A stretch of DNA of 64,000 nucleotides from positions 928,001 to 992,000 of the forward strand of contig OZ219787.1 of NCBI GenBank assembly GCA_964291285.2. The letters are read 5' to 3'. Position 1 is the first letter of the stretch; each line of letters opens with the position of its first letter. Below the pieces are notes generated by a model. That model was not told the origin of the DNA and ran no database searches. It saw only the letters and a program-made list of their open reading frames with translations. This DNA comes from Alphaproteobacteria bacterium (GTDB taxonomy: Bacteria; Pseudomonadota; Alphaproteobacteria; Bin95). Both the position numbers and the translations under genes were made by a program. Shown here piece by piece: positions 1 through 61,322 of this stretch.

Positions 1-725
1 GTGACGCCGGTGACATACTGGGCGAGGTCCGAGACCAGGAAGAGCACCGGGCCGGCGATGTCCTCCGGCGTGCCGTGGCGCCCCAGCGGGATATGCTGCA
101 TGAAACGCGCCAGCATTTCCGGCTTCTTCTGGATGCCGTCCTCGTTGATCGGCGTGAAGATGAGGCCGGGCGCCACGGCATTGACCCGGATGCCGAACGG
201 CCCGAGCTCCGCCGCCAGCCCCACGGTGAAGTTCTTCACCGCGCCCTTCGAGGTCGTATAGACGACCGAGTTGGGCGTGTGGACATGGGACTGGATCGAG
301 CCGGTATTGACGATCCGGCCCTTCGTTTCCTTCAGCTGCTCCAGGAAGGCGTGGGTCATGTAGAACAGGGCGTTCACATTGACCGCGATGGTATCCTCCC
401 AGTCCTGCCGCGCGGTGTTGGAGGAAAGCCCCGCCCGGCGCACGATGCCGGCATTGTTGAACAGGATCGAGGCGGGGCCGATCTCGATATGCACCCTGCC
501 GGCGAGCGCCTGGCAGGCGTCCGCATCGGTGACGTCCACCGGGTAGGCCCGCGCCGCCGGGCCGATTTCGCCGGCGACGGCCTCGGCCTTCGCGCCGTCC
601 ATATCCACGACCGCGACCCGCGCGCCCGCTTCCGCCAGCACATGCGCCGTGCCGCGGCCAATGCCGGAGCCGCCGCCGGTGATGACGGCGACATGGCCGT
701 CCAGCAGTCCCCTGGGAACGATCAT
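1..725 (-). CDS. SDR family oxidoreductase (3' end runs off the window)
   Basis: Minus strand from ATG 725 reads MIVPRGLLDGHVAVITGGGSGIG (TGxxxGIG), later NNAGI, YTTSKG (YxxxK) and VRVNAVAPG. ATGA overlap with the upstream SDR. Absent from the ORF track because there is no stop in the window. Confidence 0.9.
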   Translation of the reverse strand, partial: MIVPRGLLDGHVAVITGGGSGIGRGTAHVLAEAGARVAVVDMDGAKAEAVAGEIGPAARAYPVDVTDADACQALAGRVHIEIGPASILFNNAGIVRRAGLSSNTARQDWEDTIAVNVNALFYMTHAFLEQLKETKGRIVNTGSIQSHVHTPNSVVYTTSKGAVKNFTVGLAAELGPFGIRVNAVAPGLIFTPINEDGIQKKPEMLARFMQHIPLGRHGTPEDIAGPVLFLVSDLAQYVTGV

Positions 726-1513
726 CGCGCCGCCTCCTCGTCCACCGGGACCGTGTACATCAGCGGCAGCCGCCCGCCCTCGGCGTAGATCACCTGTCCG
801 GTGACGTAGGAGGACTCCTCGCTCGCGAGGAAGAGCGCGACGGAGGCGATCTCGTCGGGCTCGGCCGGGCGCCCGATGGGCGTGCGCGACAGCACCGTGC
901 GGCGCGCCTCCGGCGAGGAGAACACCATCTCCCGCATGAGTTCCGTGTTGGTGGAGCCGGGGCCGATGGCGTTGACGCGGATGCCCTTGTCGATGAGCGC
1001 GAGCGCCATGCCGGCCGTCATGTGGTTCACCGCCGCCTTGCTTGTGCAATAGGGAATCTGGGTGGGGATGACGCGCTTGCCGGCAATGGAGCCGATGGTG
1101 ACGATGGACCCGCCGCTTCCCTGCGCCACCATCTGGCGCGCGGCCGCCTGGACCGTCAGCATGACGCCGTTGACATTGACGCGCATCACCCGGTCGAAAT
1201 CGGCTTCCTCCAGATTGAGGAAATCCGCCTCGATGCCGATGCCGGCATTGGCGACCGCGATGTCGAGCCGGCCGTAGCGCTCGACGGCGAGCGCCACCAT
1301 GTCCCTGAGTTCGCCGGAGCGGGTCACGTCGCAGGCGGTCGCCGAGGCCACCGCCGCATCGTTCGAGATCGCGCGCGCGGCGGACTCGGCCCTAGCTCCG
1401 TCTATGTCGGAGAGCAGCACCTTCGCGCCCTCGCGCACGAAACGGTCGGCAATGGCCTTGCCGATCCCCTGTCCGGCTCCGGTGACGACGGCGACCTTGT
1501 TTTCCAGGCGCAT
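722..1513 (-). CDS. SDR family oxidoreductase (glucose 1-dehydrogenase/FabG-like)
   Basis: MRLENKVAVVTGAGQGIG, ANAGI, YCTSK, IRVNAIGPG, YVTGQVIYAEGG. Real start at 1513, inside the longer 780-aa ORF. Confidence 0.92.
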   Translation of the reverse strand: MRLENKVAVVTGAGQGIGKAIADRFVREGAKVLLSDIDGARAESAARAISNDAAVASATACDVTRSGELRDMVALAVERYGRLDIAVANAGIGIEADFLNLEEADFDRVMRVNVNGVMLTVQAAARQMVAQGSGGSIVTIGSIAGKRVIPTQIPYCTSKAAVNHMTAGMALALIDKGIRVNAIGPGSTNTELMREMVFSSPEARRTVLSRTPIGRPAEPDEIASVALFLASEESSYVTGQVIYAEGGRLPLMYTVPVDEEAAR

Positions 1514-4460: not shown

Positions 4461-5609
4461 ATGACATCCCTGCATGACTGGCTGGTCGGGGCGGCGTGGG
4501 AGTGCGGGTCGCCGGGGGCGTTGACGGCGGCTTACGGGCAGGCGCTGAACGAAGCGGGCATTCCGGTCTGGCGGGTGCAGGTGGGGCTGCGCACGCTGCA
4601 TCCGCTGCTGGTGGCGGAAAACCACACCTGGCGGGCGGATGCGGACGGCGTCGAGGTCGCCTACGCCACCCGCGAGACGGTGAGTTCGGACGCCTTCCTG
4701 CGCAGCCCGCTGGCGCCGCTCTACGAGGGCGCGGGCGCCATACGCTGCCGCCTCGCGGGCGAGCATGCCGCGCTCGACTACCCGGTCCTGCACGACCTGG
4801 CGGCAGCGGGCGCGACCGACTATGCGGCGCTGCCGATGTCCTTTTCCGACGGCCAGCTGAACGCGGTGACCTTCGCGACGCGGGACGCCGCTGGATTCAC
4901 CACCGGGGCGCTCGGCCGGATCAGCGCATCGGTCGGGCTGCTCGGCCGGCTGTTCGAGGTCCATATCCTCCGGGCGACGGCGGGCACCCTGCTCGACACC
5001 TATCTCGGCAAACGCTCGGGGCGGCGGGTGCTCGACGGCTCGATCCGGCGCGGCGACGGGGAGGAGATCGAGGCGGCGGTCTGGTTCGCCGACCTGCGCG
5101 GCTCCACCGCCATGGCCGAACGGCTGCCGTGCGAACTCTATCTCGATGCGCTCAATACCTTCTTCGACGCGACGGCGGGCTCCGTGGCGGACCGGGGCGG
5201 GGAGGTGCTCAAGTTCATCGGCGACGCGGTGCTTGCGATTTTCCCGGTCGAGGGCGGCAGGCCGGACGCCTGCATGAGGGCGCTGGCGGCGGCCCGCGGC
5301 GCGCTCGCCCGCCTCGACGGGCTGAACGAATACCGAGACCCGGAATGGCCGGAGCTGCGCGCGGCGCTGGCGCTGCATCTGGGCGCGGTCAGTTTCGGCA
5401 ATATCGGCACGGCCGACCGGCTCGACTTCACCGCCATCGGGCCGGCGGTCAACGAGACCGCGCGCCTCGCCGAAGCCTGCAAGCAGGCCGGGCGGCCGCT
5501 GCTCGCCTCGCACGCCTTCGCGACGGCGCTGCCGGAGGCTTTCGCGCCGCTCGACCGCTTCCGGCTGCGCGGCGTCGCCGAAGCGATGCAGGTCTTCGTC
5601 CCGGTTTGA
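4461..5609 (+). CDS. Class III adenylate/guanylate cyclase domain protein
   Basis: WFADLRGST, GGEVLKFIGDAVLAIF, GNIGTADRLDFTAIGPAVNETARL. N-terminal GAF-like region (TLHPL). Confidence 0.9.
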   Translation: MTSLHDWLVGAAWECGSPGALTAAYGQALNEAGIPVWRVQVGLRTLHPLLVAENHTWRADADGVEVAYATRETVSSDAFLRSPLAPLYEGAGAIRCRLAGEHAALDYPVLHDLAAAGATDYAALPMSFSDGQLNAVTFATRDAAGFTTGALGRISASVGLLGRLFEVHILRATAGTLLDTYLGKRSGRRVLDGSIRRGDGEEIEAAVWFADLRGSTAMAERLPCELYLDALNTFFDATAGSVADRGGEVLKFIGDAVLAIFPVEGGRPDACMRALAAARGALARLDGLNEYRDPEWPELRAALALHLGAVSFGNIGTADRLDFTAIGPAVNETARLAEACKQAGRPLLASHAFATALPEAFAPLDRFRLRGVAEAMQVFVPV

Positions 5610-13044: not shown

Positions 13045-13317
13045 GGATTTTGCAATTTGTTCACATTTAGAGAAATATTTCATAAATCAGGTTGACCTCG
13101 CGAGGTCGATTGGCCATATAAGGGCAGGAGGAAAGGAGCGGCATCCGGAGGCCGTTTCGATTCGCGCCGGTGCGAAAAAACACCCGAGAAGCCGACAGGA
13201 CAAGTGCGCCCTGCGTTTCGCTCTCGCGCGCGCCGGCGCAATCAGGCGCGCGATTCGCGCCGCCGCGGAACGCGCGCGGGCACGCGCAGGCGCCCGCGCG
13301 CATCATGCGCGAATTAG
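13045..13317 (+). repeat. Intergenic repeat family, copy A, 5' part (promoter and structured core), split by IS1634
   Basis: Shares ordered blocks GGCATCCG, TTCGCGCCGGTGCGAA, GAGAAGCCGAC, GTGCGCCCTGC and GCAATCAGGCGCGCGA (13238-13253) with copies B, C and D. Confidence 0.85.
13091..13119 (+). promoter_or_regulatory. Putative sigma70 promoter of repeat copy A
   Basis: GTTGAC-N17-CCATAT preceded by an AT-rich tract. Matches the alphaproteobacterial CTTGAC-N17-CTATAT consensus. Confidence 0.7.
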
Positions 13318-13468
13318 CCCGACTTCCGCAACTCGGCTTGAGAATCGACTGATTTGACGGTTTTCCGGCGCGAGAAGTGTCGGATTTCGGTGCAGTACCT
13401 CTCGGGACCGGCTTGTAGTGCCGACCTACCCCCTTGATCGGGCTGGCGAAGATCCGGACGCTGCGCTG

Positions 13469-15217
13469 ATGTTCGTGCGCTGCAAGAGACGCTTCAAGGA
13501 CGGCAAGGAGCACCGCTACTGGAGCGTTGTGGAGAACGTCCGGGTCCACGGCGGTCGGGTTGTTCAGCGTCAGGTGCTCTATCTCGGGGAGATCAACGAC
13601 AGCCAGCGAGCGGCGTGGTGCCGCTCGATCGAGGTGGTGGAGGGCAAGTCGCGATCACGGCAGATGGCGCTGTTTCCCGAGGACCGGGAGGCGCCGGCGC
13701 TGACTTGCGAAGTGGTGAAGATCGACCTCTCGCAGGTGGCGCTTCACGACCCGCGCCAGTGGGGGGCGTGCTGGCTGGCGCTGTCCTTGTGGGACCGCCT
13801 GGACCTGGACCGCTTCTGGGAAGAGCGGCTGCCGGCGAGCCGGCAAGGCACGCGGTGGCTGGACATCCTGAAGATCCAGGTCTGCTACCGGCTGATCGAC
13901 CCGGGCAGCGAGTGGCGCCTTCACCGTCACTGGTATGAGCACAGCGCGCTTCGCGATCTTCTGGGTGGCGAGCGGGCGATCGCCGACGACACACTCTATC
14001 GCTGTCTCGACAAGCTGCTGGCGCACAAGCAGGGCTTCTTCTCGTTTCTGCGCGACCGCTGGGCGACGCTGTTCGAGGCGCGCTTCGACGTGCTGCTCTA
14101 CGACCTGACCTCGACCTACTTCGAGAGCGATCCGCCGTTCGATGACAAGCGCCGCTTCGGCTACAGCCGGGACAAGCGGCCCGACTGCGTGCAGGTGGTG
14201 ATCGCCCTGATCGTTACGCCGCAGGGCTTTCCGCTGGCCTATGAGGTGATGCCGGGCAACACCTCCGACGACACCACGCTGGCGGCGTTCCTCAAGAAGA
14301 TCGAGGATCAGTATGGCCGCTCCGAGCGGGTGTGGATCATGGACCGCGGCATCCCCACCGAGGAGACGCTGGCCGCGATGCGCGAGGGCGAGGCGCCGGT
14401 GCGCTACCTGGTGGGCACGCCCAAGGGCCGGCTGACGCGGCTCGAGAAGGTGTTCCTGGGCCTGCCCTGGCAGGAGGTGCGCCAGTCCGTGACTGTCAAG
14501 CTTCTGGTCGAGGATGGCGAGCTCTACGTCCTGGTGCGCAGCGAGGGGCGGCAGGTGAAGGAACGCGGCATGCGCCGGCGCCGGCTGAAGAGGCTGTGGC
14601 GTCGATTGGCCGAGTTGCAAGGGCAGTCGAACAGCCGGGATCAGTTGTTGCTCAAGCTCGGCGCCGCCAGGAAGGAGGCCGGCCGGGCCTGGAGCCTGGT
14701 CGACATCACCGTGCCCGGGACCGACAGCGAACTCGCCGCCAACGGCTTCTCATTCCGCCTGCAGCGCGACCGGCTGCGCCAGGTCCGCCGCCGCGAGGGC
14801 CGTTACCTGCTGCGATCCAACATGGTCGCCGAAGACCCCGCCACGCTGTGGCATCTGTACATGCAGCTCGTCGAGATCGAGCAGGCGTTCAAGGAACTCA
14901 AGCACGACCTCGCGATCCGCCCCATCTTCCATCAGCGCCAAGAGCGCATCGAGGCGCATATCTTCGTCTCGTTCATCGCCTACTGCCTGCTGGTGACCCT
15001 GAAGAACCTCGCCCGGCCGCGCGCCCCGGGCCTCACCCCACGCGCCATCCTTGAGGCCTTCGCCACCATCCAGATGGTGGACGTCCATCTGCCAACCACC
15101 GACGGCCGGCACCTCGTCCTGCCGCGCCACACCCGGCCGAACAAGGAGCACGAGCTACTGCTGCAACAGCTCGGCATGACCTGGCCGCAGCAACCCGCAC
15201 CCCGGATCTCCGCCTGA
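13469..15217 (+). CDS. IS1634 family transposase
   Basis: MFVRCKRRFKDGKEHRYWSVVEN, LYDLTSTYFE, FGYSRDKRPD, MDRG, IEQAFKELK, IRPIFHQ, IEAHIFVSFIAY. Confidence 0.93.
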   Translation: MFVRCKRRFKDGKEHRYWSVVENVRVHGGRVVQRQVLYLGEINDSQRAAWCRSIEVVEGKSRSRQMALFPEDREAPALTCEVVKIDLSQVALHDPRQWGACWLALSLWDRLDLDRFWEERLPASRQGTRWLDILKIQVCYRLIDPGSEWRLHRHWYEHSALRDLLGGERAIADDTLYRCLDKLLAHKQGFFSFLRDRWATLFEARFDVLLYDLTSTYFESDPPFDDKRRFGYSRDKRPDCVQVVIALIVTPQGFPLAYEVMPGNTSDDTTLAAFLKKIEDQYGRSERVWIMDRGIPTEETLAAMREGEAPVRYLVGTPKGRLTRLEKVFLGLPWQEVRQSVTVKLLVEDGELYVLVRSEGRQVKERGMRRRRLKRLWRRLAELQGQSNSRDQLLLKLGAARKEAGRAWSLVDITVPGTDSELAANGFSFRLQRDRLRQVRRREGRYLLRSNMVAEDPATLWHLYMQLVEIEQAFKELKHDLAIRPIFHQRQERIEAHIFVSFIAYCLLVTLKNLARPRAPGLTPRAILEAFATIQMVDVHLPTTDGRHLVLPRHTRPNKEHELLLQQLGMTWPQQPAPRISA

Positions 15218-15294
15218 CGGCACACGGCGCCGCCTCTCCGTTCGCCGCCTTGTAGTGCCGACCCTCGGGGAGACGATCAAGGCTATTCAATGAG

Positions 15295-15368
15295 TTAGCA
15301 TCCTCATGACCCCCGAGTTGCGGAAGTCGGGTTAGCATCCTCATGACCCCCGAGTTGCGGAAGTCGGG
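15295..15368. repeat. 37-bp exact tandem duplication of the IS1634 right end
   Basis: TTAGCATCCTCATGACCCCCGAGTTGCGGAAGTCGGG at 15295-15331 and 15332-15368. Confidence 0.95.
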
Positions 15369-15620
15369 TTAGGGTCCGCTGCACGGGCAAGCCGGCGGCA
15401 GTCAAATGGAACGAAACCGGGTCGAAAGGAGAGATCTATGCCGAATGGGCAAAGACGGAGAAACCGGACGGAATACCGGGAGCCCCCGCCCGGAACGCCA
15501 GTTCCATGCCTGAATCGGCGGCAGGATATGAGCCGTCTGCATGCTGATCATGACATCGCATGACAAAACATGACACTTCATGACACGTCGGTGGAGCGGG
15601 CCCCTGGGCCCGGCTGCGGG
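15369..15620 (+). repeat. Intergenic repeat family, copy A, 3' part (variable segment and CATGACA array)
   Basis: Joining 13317 to 15373 restores ATGCGCGAATTAGGGTCC, homologous to ATGCGCGAATCAGGGTCC in copy C. CATGACA at 15549, 15559, 15569 and 15579. Confidence 0.85.
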
Positions 15621-34436: not shown

Positions 34437-35627
34437 ATGCCCTGGCAGAATCAAGGCGGAGGCGGCGGCGGCCCGTGGGGCGGCGGCGGCGGTGGCGGTC
34501 CCTGGGGCGGCGGCGGTGGCGGCGGCCCGTGGGGCGGCGGCGGAGGCGGCAACCAGGGCGGCGGCGGTGGCTGGGGCGGCGGACGCGGCCCCGGCGGCGG
34601 TCCGCAGGCTCCCAATGTCGAGGAGGCGATCCGGCGCCTGCAGGACTGGCTGCGCCGGCGCATGCCGGGCGGCGGGGCCGGCGGCCGCGGCGGGCGCATC
34701 GGCATCCTGCTGGTCGTCGTCGTGCTGCTCGCGATCTGGGTGCTGAGCGGCTTCTACCGCGTGCAGACGGACGAGCAGGGCGTCGTGCTGCGCTTCGGCG
34801 AGCGCGTCGGCACCACCACGCCCGGCCTCAACTACCATCTGCCCTATCCCATCGAGACGGTCGAGACGCCGAAGGTGACGCGGGTCAACCGCGTCGAGGT
34901 CGGCTTCCGCAGCGCCGAGGAAGCGCTGATGCTGACCGGCGACGAGAACATCGTCGATATCAACTTCGTCGTCTTCTGGATCATCAAGGACGCCGGCGAC
35001 TACCTGTTCAACGTGCGCGAGCCGGAACGGTCGGTGAAGGCGGCTGCCGAGAGCGTGATGCGCGAGATCGTCGGGCAGACGCCCATCGCGGCCGCGCTCG
35101 CCGAGGGCCGCGGCCAGATCGAGGACAAGGTCAAGGCCGGCGTGCAGGGCATCCTGGACGACTACCGGACCGGCATCGAGATCACCAATGTGCAGCTCCT
35201 CAAGGTCGATCCGCCGAACCAGGTGGTCGATGCCTTCCGCGACGTGCAGCGCGCCCGCGCGGACCAGGAGCGGCTGCGCAACGAGGCGGAAGCCTACGCC
35301 AACGACATCATCCCCCGCGCGCGCGGCGAGGCGGAGCGGCTGGTGCAGGAGGCGGAGGCCTACAAGCAGGAGGTCGTGGCACGCTCCGAAGGCGACGCCC
35401 AGCGCTTCACCCAGGTCTATACGGCCTTCAGGGCCGCCAAGGACGTGACCACCAAGCGCATCTATCTGGAGACGATGGAGGAAATCTTCGCCAACGCGGA
35501 GAAATACGTCATCGACCAGGGCGGCGGGGCGTCCGGCGTGGTGCCATACCTGCCGTTGCCCGAGGTGCAGAAGCGGATCAAGGCGAATGAGGCCGGAACG
35601 CAATCCGGCGCGGGAGACCTGCAATGA
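34437..35627 (+). CDS. hflK: FtsH protease modulator HflK
   Basis: MPWQNQGGG...GPWG N-terminus, one TM segment, MLTGDENIVD, DAFRDVQ, RIYLETME. Confidence 0.95.
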   Translation: MPWQNQGGGGGGPWGGGGGGGPWGGGGGGGPWGGGGGGNQGGGGGWGGGRGPGGGPQAPNVEEAIRRLQDWLRRRMPGGGAGGRGGRIGILLVVVVLLAIWVLSGFYRVQTDEQGVVLRFGERVGTTTPGLNYHLPYPIETVETPKVTRVNRVEVGFRSAEEALMLTGDENIVDINFVVFWIIKDAGDYLFNVREPERSVKAAAESVMREIVGQTPIAAALAEGRGQIEDKVKAGVQGILDDYRTGIEITNVQLLKVDPPNQVVDAFRDVQRARADQERLRNEAEAYANDIIPRARGEAERLVQEAEAYKQEVVARSEGDAQRFTQVYTAFRAAKDVTTKRIYLETMEEIFANAEKYVIDQGGGASGVVPYLPLPEVQKRIKANEAGTQSGAGDLQ

Positions 35628-42594: not shown

Positions 42595-43458
42595 AAAGAA
42601 TGAAAAAAATCTAATGAAATTGATTTTTGTTCGTAATTTGATCTTGACATCTGGCGGATTGTGATATGATGGTCCCCAGGGAAGAGGCATCCGGAGCCGC
42701 TTCCCGGGCGTTGCGCGGCCGGGCGGCGCCATTTCTGAAAACCCGTGAGAAGCCGACGGGAGACGTGCGTCCTGCGTCTCGCGCGCGCAATCAGGCGCGC
42801 GAACCGCGCCGGCGCCGACACGCGCCCGGGCAGGCGCGGGCGCCCGCGCAGGATACGCGCGGAAACAGGGACCCGCTCCCCGTCGGAGAAGGAGGAACGA
42901 TGAGGGCAACCGACCCCCGCCCCGGGCTGGCGGCGATGCCGGCCGAAAGGCTCGCGCCGGCCGCCGCGGCCCTTGCCAGTGCCTATGCGGAGGAGATGAG
43001 CGCCGGGCCGCCGCCCATCTGCCAGAGCCTGTGCCCGCACCTGCCGGGGAGCCCGCGAACGACCCCGACGCCTGGGTCCCGCAGCCGGAGGCGCAGGCGC
43101 GGGCGGGTGGTAGGACCGGCTCCGTGTAGGCCGCAATGACCTCGTCCGCAAGCTCCTATCGTCACCCCGGCCGGAGCGGAGCGGAGAGCCGGGGTCCATC
43201 CTCCGCCCTCTCCACCGGACCGAAACGGTGGGGGACGGGTCCCGGTTCCGGGGCCGGGGCGACGGTGAACGCAAGACGCAGAAGGAGACCGAAGAGTGGA
43301 CAGCTTCATGCCTGAAACGGCTGCAGCATATGAACCCTGCGCATGCAGATCATGACATTCCATGACACATGGCGAGGGAAGCCCGGCGCGCCTCATGACA
43401 AAACATGACATCTCATGATGCCCCGGATGGAGCGGTCCGTTGTGCCGGGCAGCCGGGT
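42595..43458 (+). repeat. Intergenic repeat family, copy B
   Basis: AT tract, CTTGACA (42643) ... TATGAT (42665), GGCATCCGG, GAGAAGCCGACGGGAGACGTGCG, GCAATCAGGCGCGCGA (42787-42802), AAACAGGGACCC. CATGACA at 43351, 43361, 43394, 43404 (CATGATG at 43414). Confidence 0.85.
43161..43263. repeat. GTCA-type REP/RIME-like palindromic unit nested in copy B
   Basis: GTCACCCCGG...GAGCCGGGGTCCA with a degenerate inverted partner GGGTCCCGGTTCCGGGGCCGGGGCGAC. Related to 60737-60889. Confidence 0.7.
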
Positions 43459-49436: not shown

Positions 49437-50015
49437 ATGCGCCCGCAGGTCCTGACCGTCGGCCACTCCAACCATGCGCCGGAAACTTTTCTGGCGCTGC
49501 TGGTGCGGCATGGCGTGACGGCGCTCGGCGACGTGCGCTCCGCGCCCTCGAGCCGGTTCAATCCCCATTTCAACCGCAAGGCGCTTTCGGCGTCGCTCTC
49601 CGCCAGCGGCATCGCCTATGCCTGGCTTGGGCGCGAACTCGGCGGACGGCCGGACGATCCCGCCTGCTACGAGGATGGCGAACTCTGTTACGACCGTCTT
49701 GCCCGGACTGCGCTTTACCGGCAGGGAATCGAACGGGTCCTGCGCGGCGCGGCGGAGCACCGGCTGGCGCTGATGTGCGCGGAGAAGGACCCGCTCCACT
49801 GCCACCGCGCGCTGCTGGTCTCCCGCTCGCTCGAGGATGAAGGGCTGGAGGTCGCCCATATCCTCGCGGACGGCAGTCTCGAACCTCATGACAGCGTCAT
49901 GGACCGGCTGCTCGCCGCCCGCCGCCCGGAGGACGACCTGTTCGCAGCAGGGAAGTCGCGCGCCGACTGGATCGCCGAGGCCGCCCGCATGCCGCGCCGC
50001 CGCAAGCGCGCCTGA
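49437..50015 (+). CDS. DUF488 domain protein
   Basis: TVGHSN, DVRS.P.SR, ELGGR, LMCAEKDPLHCHR. Confidence 0.88.
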   Translation: MRPQVLTVGHSNHAPETFLALLVRHGVTALGDVRSAPSSRFNPHFNRKALSASLSASGIAYAWLGRELGGRPDDPACYEDGELCYDRLARTALYRQGIERVLRGAAEHRLALMCAEKDPLHCHRALLVSRSLEDEGLEVAHILADGSLEPHDSVMDRLLAARRPEDDLFAAGKSRADWIAEAARMPRRRKRA

Positions 50016-50034: not shown

Positions 50035-50508
50035 CGCGGCTGCCGGGGCACACTCCAGCGCGATGTCATGATGTGTCATGTTTTGTCATGGGCGCCGCCG
50101 GAAATGTCATGTTTTGTCATGGTCCGCCGCGCCTCCGCCCCGGCCCCATCGCTGCCCGTTCGTATCCCGCATGTCGTTCGTCCGTCATGTTTCGTTCCAC
50201 TCCGTTCCGTTCGCCCCGCCGCCGGTTCGCCCATGCGGCGGGACCCTGATTCGCGCATATCGCGCGCGGGGGCGCGCGCGTCGGCGGCGGCGCGGTTCGC
50301 GCGCCTGATTGCGCCTGCGCGCGCGTAGGCCCAAATGCAGGGCGCACCTGTCCCGTCAGCTTCCCAGGGTGTTTTTCGCGCCGGCGCGAACCGGGAGAGC
50401 GGGCGGCCCCGCGCGGATGCCGCCGCCTCTCTCCCGGCCTATTTAGTTACAGAATCAGAGAGTGTCAATCCTAAAAACAGAAATTTTTCATAAATAGTGA
50501 ACAAAATG
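50035..50508 (-). repeat. Intergenic repeat family, copy C (shortest complete copy)
   Basis: Minus-strand promoter ATTGAC-N17-CTAAAT (50469-50441). Invariant 16-mer at 50297-50312. TGTCATG at 50064, 50074, 50084, 50105 and 50115. Confidence 0.88.
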
Positions 50509-60634: not shown

Positions 60635-61322
60635 CGCTATCCGGCACACCCGCGCACCGTGTCATGAGATGTCATGTTTTGTCATGTTCCGGGGGCGGAA
60701 TGTCATGTTTTGTCATGTTCCGATCCACCCCTCCTCGTCACCCCGGCCCCCGAGCCGGGGTCCAGCCTCGGTTCTCGCGGCGGCCCCGGATCGGGGGCCG
60801 GGGCAGGCCTCGGCGGTTCGGTCCACCCTCTGCCGGCCGCGGCGGTATCGGGAGTCATGGATGGACCCCGGCTCGGGGGCCGGGGTGACTGTTGAGGGCC
60901 GGGATGGGAGGCCATCCTGTCCGCCCGGCCGCCGCCTGGCCGCCGACCCTCTCCCGACCTCTCCCTCGTGCGGGAGAGGCGGTTTCGCGTCTCCGTCCGT
61001 ATGCTGCATGCCGTTCCGCTCCGTTCTCCCCGCCGCCGGCCCGCCCGGCGCGGCGGGACCCTGTTTCGCGCGTATCGCGCCCGCCTGCCCGCGCGCGTCG
61101 CCGCCGGCGCGGTTCGCGCGCCTGATTGCCCGCGCGCGAGGCGGGCGCAGGGCGCACGTCTCCCGTCCGTTTCCCGGAGGTTTTTAAATTCGCGCCGGCG
61201 CGAACCGGGAGAGGAAGCGGCTCGGCGCGGACACCGCTCCCTTCCTGCCGCCATATATCGGCGCTGCCGTTCCCGGTGTCAACCCGTATTCAGAATTATT
61301 TCTTTTTTCCTAAACAAATCGC
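60635..61322 (-). repeat. Intergenic repeat family, copy D
   Basis: Minus-strand promoter GTTGAC-N18-GATATA (61283-61254). Invariant 16-mer at 61114-61129. TGTCATG at 60660, 60670, 60680, 60701 and 60711. Confidence 0.88.
60737..60889. repeat. REP/RIME-like unit with 28-bp perfect inverted repeat nested in copy D
   Basis: GTCACCCCGGCCCCCGAGCCGGGGTCCA (60737-60764) and its reverse complement at 60862-60889. Partial third arm at about 60782-60804. Confidence 0.85.

Follow-up and report, generated by a model that had tools for sequence, protein, structure and literature searches.

Four intergenic stretches of an alphaproteobacterial genome are decayed members of a genus-specific family of probably phage-derived cassettes

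Phage satellites measure about 7-18 kb and occur as single-copy islands that have an integrase, replication and interference genes, and an att site. The pac site of phage P1 consists of clustered hexamer repeats on either side of the cleavage point. In the late-operon control region of lambdoid phages, a constitutive promoter, a structured leader and antitermination are placed ahead of the terminase genes. Here I describe a family of small DNA cassettes that came to light in the window, by which I mean the whole 64,000-nucleotide stretch that was analysed (G000:C3:928001-992000; G000 is a genome of 6.13 Mb with 68% GC in 5 contigs). An earlier note on this DNA had described four intergenic regions with a common order of blocks and had suggested a stand-alone structured RNA and/or a non-autonomous mobile element. 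All four stretches belong, in decayed form, to a cassette family of about 90 copies that is specific to the genus, probably derives from a phage and lies outside the usual transposon and small-RNA classes.

A complete unit consists, in order, of an AT-rich tract with a TTGAC-type box, a GC-rich leader of about 270 nt, a ribosome-binding site with an open reading frame (ORF), and an array of CATGACA heptamers. The leader starts with a covarying hairpin (hairpin P1), which is followed by the near-invariant blocks GTGCGYC and GCAATCAGGCGCGCGA (the 16-mer). In every subfamily, a Shine-Dalgarno-like motif and an ATG lie directly behind the leader. The array sits 150-1200 bp beyond the leader, is as conserved as the leader and has the same distribution among genomes; the arrays carry A- and T-tracts in helical phase. 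The cassettes are 0.45-1.6 kb in size with one ORF each, and the approximately 90 copies of G000 are solely intergenic and lie in both orientations.

A genome-wide count, which the earlier note had proposed, gave 79 exact 16-mers in G000, far beyond the four copies of the window, and 93 matches at no more than one mismatch, one of which is a chance match inside a gene. Triple arrays of CATGACA-N3 number 91, and the reversed control pattern gave 0. A 16-mer lies on the same strand within 1.5 kb upstream of 91 of the 113 array clusters; most of the 21 clusters without an upstream 16-mer appeared by eye to be 3' halves severed by an insertion sequence (IS). Sixteen other genomes of the genus were compared: the 16-mer and the array occur together in 13 of them and are both missing from G001, G003 and G013. 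Neither was found in 20 genomes of two sister genera, and the 16-mer was not found in 16 genomes of other families. Keyword and motif-string searches of the literature (supplements not covered) found no account of the family. G011 has 98 arrays and 8 terminase-like matches, but only 3 exact 16-mers. In two of its leaders of the terS type (L104 and L108), the GCAATCAGG part of the 16-mer is replaced by GCGCAGGCGCGCGCAAG or a similar sequence, with hairpin P1, GTGYGCC and the arrays retained. Thus, the 16-mer is not indispensable to the cassette family.

What do the cassettes encode? The cargo of family 1 is a 329-aa protein, intact and full-length in ten G000 copies. Its single Pfam match is to Terminase_2 (PF03592) at 45-46.5 bits (cut-off 26.1; E 2e-11), and it matches the phrog_51 terminase small subunit at E 1e-12. 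In tblastn, residues 8-122 align with annotated phage small terminases. The AlphaFold model has an overall mean predicted local distance difference test (pLDDT) score of 61, and an N-terminal helix-turn-helix at residues 11-60 reaches a pLDDT of at least 89. Past it lie further helices and disordered charged linkers; the model is all-helical and has no catalytic domain. The modelled helices at 69-106 (pLDDT 65-79) may correspond to an oligomerisation hairpin, which they resemble. The top Foldseek matches were small terminases of the SF6/SPP1 type, none of them at E <=0.001, and the SF6 DNA-binding domain (4zc3) superimposed on the model with a template modelling (TM) score of 0.85 at 1.5 A over 56 columns. 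All 12 Terminase_2 matches in G000 are above the cut-off and all 12 are inside cassettes. The ratio of nonsynonymous to synonymous substitution rates (dN/dS) of the terminase-like gene between species is 0.23-0.47 (33 pairs); therefore, the 329-aa protein is under purifying selection. Its ORF runs into the array, the first heptamers of which supply the last five codons (..DHDKT) and then the stop. Twelve of the 16 other genus genomes have several copies of the gene (7-17 matches); the three genomes without cassettes yielded none, nor did G008, where cassettes are few. The absence of a shared ORF reported in the earlier note thus holds within the window, but not elsewhere, where copies carry this gene.

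Other cargo exists as well. A second family (MTATDP..., 192 and 234 aa) has no Pfam family, is unrelated to the terminase-like protein and gave one weak PHROG match of unassigned function and weak Atlas leads. Short ORFs, such as MPKTRSRGNRMEYP... and MEERHAGY..., make up the remainder. The majority of cargo ORFs survive as remnants with a frameshift or a truncation, and their ends differ.

In the window, a motif scan placed exact 16-mers at 13238 (+), 42787 (+), 50312 (-) and 61129 (-), which bears out the four copies (A to D) with ordered blocks that the earlier note had seen. When the window was shuffled 100 times, the number of matches to the 16-mer with up to 2 mismatches stayed below 5 in every case (mean 0.47). 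A 2-mismatch match at 35600-35615, which is without all the neighbouring blocks, was taken as chance. The block order in each copy is an AT-rich tract, the TTGAC box, a hairpin centred on GGCATCCG, a TTCGCGCCGGYGCGAA palindrome (copies A, C and D), GTGCGYCC, the 16-mer, ACGCGCGAA..AGGG, a variable part and the CATGACA heptamers. The -35 box lies at 13092 (A), 42644 (B), 50468 (C) and 61282 (D). Its spacing to the 16-mer is nearly constant, as had been noted with values of 144-157 bp; I measured 143-156 bp in the window copies and 122-160 bp across 72 intact copies of the genome. The heptamers follow a strict 10-bp period at 15549-15585, 43351-43420, 50064-50121 and 60660-60717. All four window copies are decayed derivatives that carry only short ORF remnants. 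Their parts are as follows.

50064..50507, minus strand: copy C, the type example; whole decayed element from the TTTTGTTCA 5' motif to the last CATGACA heptamer
50463..50468, minus strand: -35-like box TTGACA of copy C, preceded by the AT-rich tract 50469-50507; negative in the strict promoter scan
50393..50434, minus strand: hairpin P1 of copy C, placed where the transcript is predicted to begin; covariation in a set of 53 distinct copies
50297..50312, minus strand: 16-mer GCAATCAGGCGCGCGA of copy C; its GGCGCGC half is predicted to pair with GTGCGCC at 50341-50347
50064..50121, minus strand: terminal array of copy C, 2 + 3 CATGACA heptamers with a 10-bp period; 3' end of the element
13056..13317, plus strand: 5' part of copy A, with the promoter-like box at 13092 and the 16-mer at 13238
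13318..15368, plus strand: 2.05-kb IS splitting copy A; its ORF 13418-15217 encodes a 599-aa DDE_Tnp_1 transposase
15369..15585, plus strand: 3' part of copy A, with the leader end, a short MPNG... ORF and four heptamers at 15549-15585
42600..43420, plus strand: copy B, of the TCTGGCGGATTG leader subtype; -35 at 42644, 16-mer at 42787, arrays at 43351-43367 and 43394-43420
42900..43139, plus strand: remnant ORF of copy B, 79 aa, MRATDPRPGLAA..., a truncated member of the second cargo family (intact forms 192 and 234 aa)
43153..43267, plus strand: repeat of about 110 bp, like a repetitive extragenic palindrome (REP), inserted in copy B and unrelated to the cassette family
60660..61318, minus strand: copy D; -35 at 61277-61282, 16-mer at 61114-61129, arrays at 60701-60717 and 60660-60686

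Copy C occupies the gap between two convergent genes and faces the 3' end of one of them, as the earlier note had it; the plus-strand gene ends at 50015. Blastn of copy C against the PLSDB plasmids gave no match. The two parts in which copy A had been described are explained by the 2.05-kb IS, which is flanked by a TTAG duplication (13314-13317 and 15369-15372). The REP-like repeat of copy B is GC-rich and palindromic (GTCACCCCGGCC...GGGGTCCATCC), and similar inserts lie in copy D at about 60740-60930. This repeat is also present in dozens of copies in G003, from which the cassette family is absent.

The units have multiplied at the DNA level together with their promoter; they degrade through internal deletions, and these shortened forms are then amplified themselves. 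The same deletion breakpoint recurs at unrelated loci: ...CRHYTAS is joined to TGSRGPA... in three copies, and three others share ...LLERPWIVENIEQ.... The closest copies are homologous from a point about 45 bp upstream of the -35 box (TTTGTTC or ATGAAA) to no more than about 2 bp past the last heptamer; therefore, the promoter belongs to the copied unit. An IS91-like GTTC target was considered and rejected: since the conserved 5' motif is the longer TTTGTTC, GTTC is part of the element. Copies that share 97% identity downstream can nonetheless have different promoter and hairpin P1 parts, and this difference points to gene conversion among the copies.

Filled and empty sites could be compared in related genomes. 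At locus C, the flanking convergent genes of G013 abut and have no cassette between them; in G006, G007, G009 and G010, cassettes of other subfamilies lie just past the stop codon of the upstream gene, and a long distance separates the two flanks of copy C in G007, G008 and G010. Locus D has no cassette in G002, G006, G007 and G010 and is filled in G016 as in G000. In G016, the cassette at this locus truncates a PIN gene. G007 has a PIN-domain/MazE-like antitoxin pair there (L098, G007:C3:2031300-2032760; 603-1231, minus strand), and a sequence resembling this pair was recognised by eye in G006 and partly in G010. For copies B and D, it is the array-side flank only that is conserved in the searched relatives. 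The cassettes coincide with synteny breaks. With empty sites in relatives and identical deletion forms at unrelated loci, the window copies do look like the non-autonomous mobile element of the earlier suggestion. The search for a copy with its own transposase, recombinase or reverse transcriptase, proposed in the same place, found none; such genes are present only in IS inserted into the copies.

In G000, no large terminase was found by PF03237, PF03354, PF04466 or PF05876 (other large-terminase families were not searched), and because of this the terminase-like genes are regarded as orphans. One weak HK97-capsid match exists in this genome. The large terminase of a prophage in G016 adjoins no cassette or array, as judged by comparison of coordinates. 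On the phage contig L110 of IMG/VR (37% GC), the sequence CATGACAAAACATGACATTACATGACA at 5410-5436 is an array with 26 of 27 residues identical, about 230 bp upstream of a phrog_51 terS gene that is followed by a phrog_2 terL gene. This array directly precedes a promoter-like site, TTGATT-N17-TATAAT. On L156, a low-GC phage contig, an array with all 27 residues identical (CATGACAGAACATGACATTTCATGACA, 23-49) lies near the contig end and upstream of a phrog_2 terL gene; the CATGACAGAACATGACATTTCATGACA variant also occurs within the genus. I base the phage link on L110 and L156, because these are the only two that match in the spacers. The 16-mer occurs in 38 IMG/VR contigs; none of them has a neighbouring GTGCGYCC block or array, and they were taken as chance.

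An orphan gene annotated as 'terminase small subunit' was also found on the Skermanella rosea plasmid NZ_CP086113.1 (L103, 5860-6700). It lies between metabolic genes, and its product is 32% identical over residues 4-110. The promoter region is AT-rich and contains an ACATGA..TCATGT palindrome and a TTGTTC motif, and two GGA(A)TAGTGACCT direct repeats lie near the 3' end. This gene may be a distant analogue of the cassette layout.

With a probability of roughly 0.55, I take the family to be small DNA cassettes from a phage packaging module, that is, mobile units of terS plus a pac-like array that probably depend on a helper phage. The terminase-like protein would form oligomers that bind the phased array with its A-tracts or wrap it, as small terminases act on pac sites. 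The leader would keep the expression of the unit under control, like a phage late-operon leader. Since no large terminase was found in the resident genome, a helper phage would be needed, and the cassette would act only when that phage supplies one. The cassettes may thereby mark the chromosome with packaging signals, which could lead to satellite-like hitch-hiking, transduction or a decoy effect. A more speculative form of this idea, which I regard as doubtful, is that the approximately 40-130 packaging signals per genome (the phased arrays), together with the orphan terS genes and the phage-late-like promoter and leader, let a host terS direct headful packaging, with transduction and capsid diversion as the outcome. 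If this is true, an infecting phage with a compatible large terminase would become a generalised or lateral transducer of the whole chromosome, and a self-propagating terS-pac cassette would have given rise to a combined gene-transfer and decoy-defence system.

Several results weigh against a packaging cassette. Other cargo families (MTATDP... and MPKTRSR...) sit on the same chassis and are not terminase-like. No large terminase was found in most cassette-bearing genomes, Terminase_6N being present in 3 of the 17 genus genomes and TerL_ATPase in none of them. The terS of L110 scores 24.8 bits on Pfam Terminase_2, below the cut-off of 26.1, and has no BLASTP similarity to the cassette protein. 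Phased triple heptamers of CATGACA were found in 10 viral contigs and those of the reversed control in 17; because the control is commoner, the occurrence of an array in a phage contig is in itself uninformative. A strict scan for sigma-70 promoters with an E. coli-type consensus found none in copies B and C. As for the leader, covariation was obtained for hairpin P1 only, the whole-leader fold has no pair changed on both sides, and a local hairpin P3 around GUGCGYCC was rejected, as it is no better than shuffled sequences (mean dG -12.2 vs -11.8, z -0.18). Terminal inverted repeats and a recombinase were looked for and not found, and no target duplication was seen at the 4 aligned pairs. Finally, for the SF6 DNA-binding domain, the closest solved relative, a study reported weak, sequence-independent binding and a minor role for the pac repeats (PMC4737164). 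It also proposed a selection of bent DNA (PMC4737164), and A- and T-tracts in helical phase would fit bent DNA.

Could the family instead be a selfish non-autonomous repeat that is mobilised in trans by a host or IS transposase, for example an IS3-like one, with the terminase-like protein as an accessory or passenger and no packaging at all? The presence/absence polymorphism at loci C and D and the amplified deletion derivatives would be expected of such a repeat, as would the number of exact 16-mers, which varies from 4 to 60 between species, and the insertion into intergenic sites only, in random orientation. An IS3-like inverted repeat lies within 12 nt of a heptamer in 18 of 23 occurrences, and a 180-bp sub-module starts with a TGGAGAGG... 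motif that resembles the IS3 inverted repeat. However, the IS3-like copies interrupt arrays and do not flank whole cassettes. Pairwise alignments of the closest copies showed no terminal inverted repeats at the cassette ends (5' ...TTTGTTC or ATGAAA; 3' CATGACA), in agreement with the earlier note, and no target duplication was visible at 4 aligned pairs; the empty sites that were compared are too diverged or deletion-bearing for exact junctions. The filled sites of G016 and G000 show adjacent deletions or replacements, unlike clean transposition. In addition, the terminase-like gene is under purifying selection and tracks the family across genomes. I consider a trans-mobilised repeat rather unlikely.

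Three IS types favour fixed positions in the cassettes. The IS type of copy A (599-aa DDE_Tnp_1; ends TAGCCCGACTTCC...) is inserted at the same leader position, ACGCGCGAAT^TAG, in 8 places including copy A. Fifty-five ends of this type were found in G000, which correspond to roughly 27 IS copies, and at nine right-hand junctions the leader resumes (...GGGTTAG^GGTCC). Because insertion at the identical position is repeated, the leader is a preferred target of the DDE_Tnp_1 IS. A second IS type, with the end ...CGATCCGGAGAGATACAAG, abuts the leader block GTGYG in 8 of 12 occurrences (e.g. C1:641337, C1:860071, C2:876777 and C3:1277676). The third is the IS3-like element, which has the inverted repeat TGGAGTGGGCCCC and an orfA starting with MRKHRTHSMAFKRQVVEEY (in G000, e.g. 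C2:1255459+1143, C1:691335 and C2:1315490). It was concluded that this element targets arrays, given the 18 of 23 inverted repeats no more than 12 nt from a CATGACA heptamer. A remnant of it, TGGAGCGGGCCCC, remains at 15590-15610 of the window. The sub-module of about 180 bp lies directly behind the array of another cassette and is built from a TGGAGAGGACGG... start, part of a leader, the short ORF MPCERPERRP... and an array of its own. It yields tandem arrays; 8 G000 loci are listed (e.g. C1:227770+313 and C3:917654+505) and nine clusters were counted.

The next candidate is a stand-alone, trans-acting structured small RNA, for which the leader is the functional product and the ORFs and arrays are incidental. 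The promoter-like box and the near-invariant 16-mer are conserved in 13 species. At the aligned -35 position, TTGAC occurs in 36 and TTGCA in 14 of the 72 intact copies; the commonest -10-like box is TGnTATGAT at 15-bp spacing, with an ATAT-rich alternative at 17-19 bp. The label 'promoter-bearing' used in the earlier note needs correction in that the strict scan of copies B and C was negative. Across 53 distinct copies, the covariation test, which used a hand-set structure derived from the same sequences and therefore favours hairpin P1, gave 80.8% paired cells against 73.5% in shuffles and 61 double-change cells against 28.7. None of 500 shuffles was as high in pairing, double changes or covariation score, and slid controls of hairpin P1 scored lower. 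The hairpin also includes G-U pairs. RNAalifold on the hairpin P1 sub-alignment returned no structure, the 3' arm being out of register. On the whole leader it gave 12 pairs in two helices, both of which join invariant blocks; one of them pairs GUGCGYC with the GGCGCRC half of the 16-mer, where all variation is wobble-compatible. The covariation that the earlier note had asked about is seen in hairpin P1, and the whole-leader fold showed no double changes. In local folding, hairpin P1 and the GC-rich middle (P5/6) are better than shuffles with z about -2.

Despite these features, a stand-alone structured RNA is not the best description of the family. No sense-strand terminator was found behind the leader in a scan of copies B and C; in all subfamilies, the next elements are a ribosome-binding site and an ATG. 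Intact copies encode a protein under selection, the equally conserved array 150-1200 bp downstream shares the distribution of the leader, and G011 keeps its cassettes with the 16-mer replaced. I regard the small RNA as less likely still than the trans-mobilised repeat. The earlier note had not recognised a described family, and Rfam gave no match in the whole window at the gathering threshold. A search of copy C at E up to 10 gave a chance microRNA as the sole match (16.5 bits vs a cut-off of 70), which was rejected. The cassettes are not cis-regulators of downstream host genes. Among 82 array-bearing copies, 43 are co-directional with and 39 convergent to the next ORF, as counted with a crude GC3-based gene caller after eleven array-less copies were dropped; this agrees with the earlier statement that copy C is not a cis-riboswitch.

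It is very improbable that the family is a domesticated, non-mobile regulon of small-protein genes that share a promoter, a leader and an operator array and are governed by a common regulator at CATGA sites at both ends: several unrelated cargo ORFs do stand on one chassis, a CATGA-like motif exists at the 5' edge (TTCATGAAA, ACATGAA) and the Skermanella orphan terS has its palindrome in the promoter region, but the cargo ORFs are mostly remnants, the empty sites and synteny breaks indicate recent gain, and the copies are full of IS and REP insertions.

If the cassettes do derive from a phage packaging module, such a module has turned into a self-contained chromosomal cassette that multiplies without a recognisable transposase. 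This would also open a possible route by which chromosomes programme their own transduction or act as a decoy for phage packaging. Orphan 'terminase small subunit' genes are annotated across many genomes, and the present results suggest that they can belong to repeat systems; the Skermanella plasmid gene is one such orphan. In practical terms, the cassettes are markers of synteny breakpoints and preferred landing pads of three IS types, and short-read assemblies will break up at the copies of the family, by which prophage finders will also be misled.

How does the family compare with the known systems? By analogy, the promoter-like box, long structured leader and terS-like gene of the cassette may be likened to the lambdoid late operon, from which the cassettes differ in that neither a terminator nor an antiterminator was identified, the scan having covered copies B and C. 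As at the pac site of phage P1, the cassettes have two clusters of repeats (2-3 plus 3 heptamers), with a spacer of 21-33 bp between them. The motif, phasing and protein family differ from those of phage P1 pac. In the working model of a packaging cassette, the family is like phage-inducible chromosomal islands (PICI) and other phage satellites in having a chromosomal terS homologue and its own packaging signal that are silent without a helper phage. In contrast to satellites, the cassettes are 0.45-1.6 kb in size, number about 90 per genome, have one ORF and lack an integrase, and they do not qualify as satellites.

Miniature inverted-repeat transposable elements (MITEs) and the Correia elements of Neisseria share with the cassettes a high copy number, intergenic sites, deletion derivatives, an outward promoter-like sequence and presence/absence polymorphism. 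However, the cassettes show no terminal inverted repeats and, at 4 aligned pairs, no target duplication, and their longest copies encode a terminase-like protein, not a transposase. They also have a structured leader of about 270 nt and a phased heptamer array, unlike MITEs. The small terminases of the SPP1/SF6 type (G1P; Terminase_2, phrog_51) share the N-terminal helix-turn-helix family with the cassette protein, whose best fold match is the SF6 domain. The cassette gene differs in that it is not adjoined by a large terminase, portal or capsid gene, and the cassettes are dispersed in the chromosome as 10 intact and about 80 decayed copies. The cassette protein is 329 aa in length with a long charged C-terminal part, and its heptamers are phased at 10 bp and placed at the 3' end of the gene. 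In SPP1/SF6 pac, as in the cassettes, direct repeats are found at or in the terS gene.

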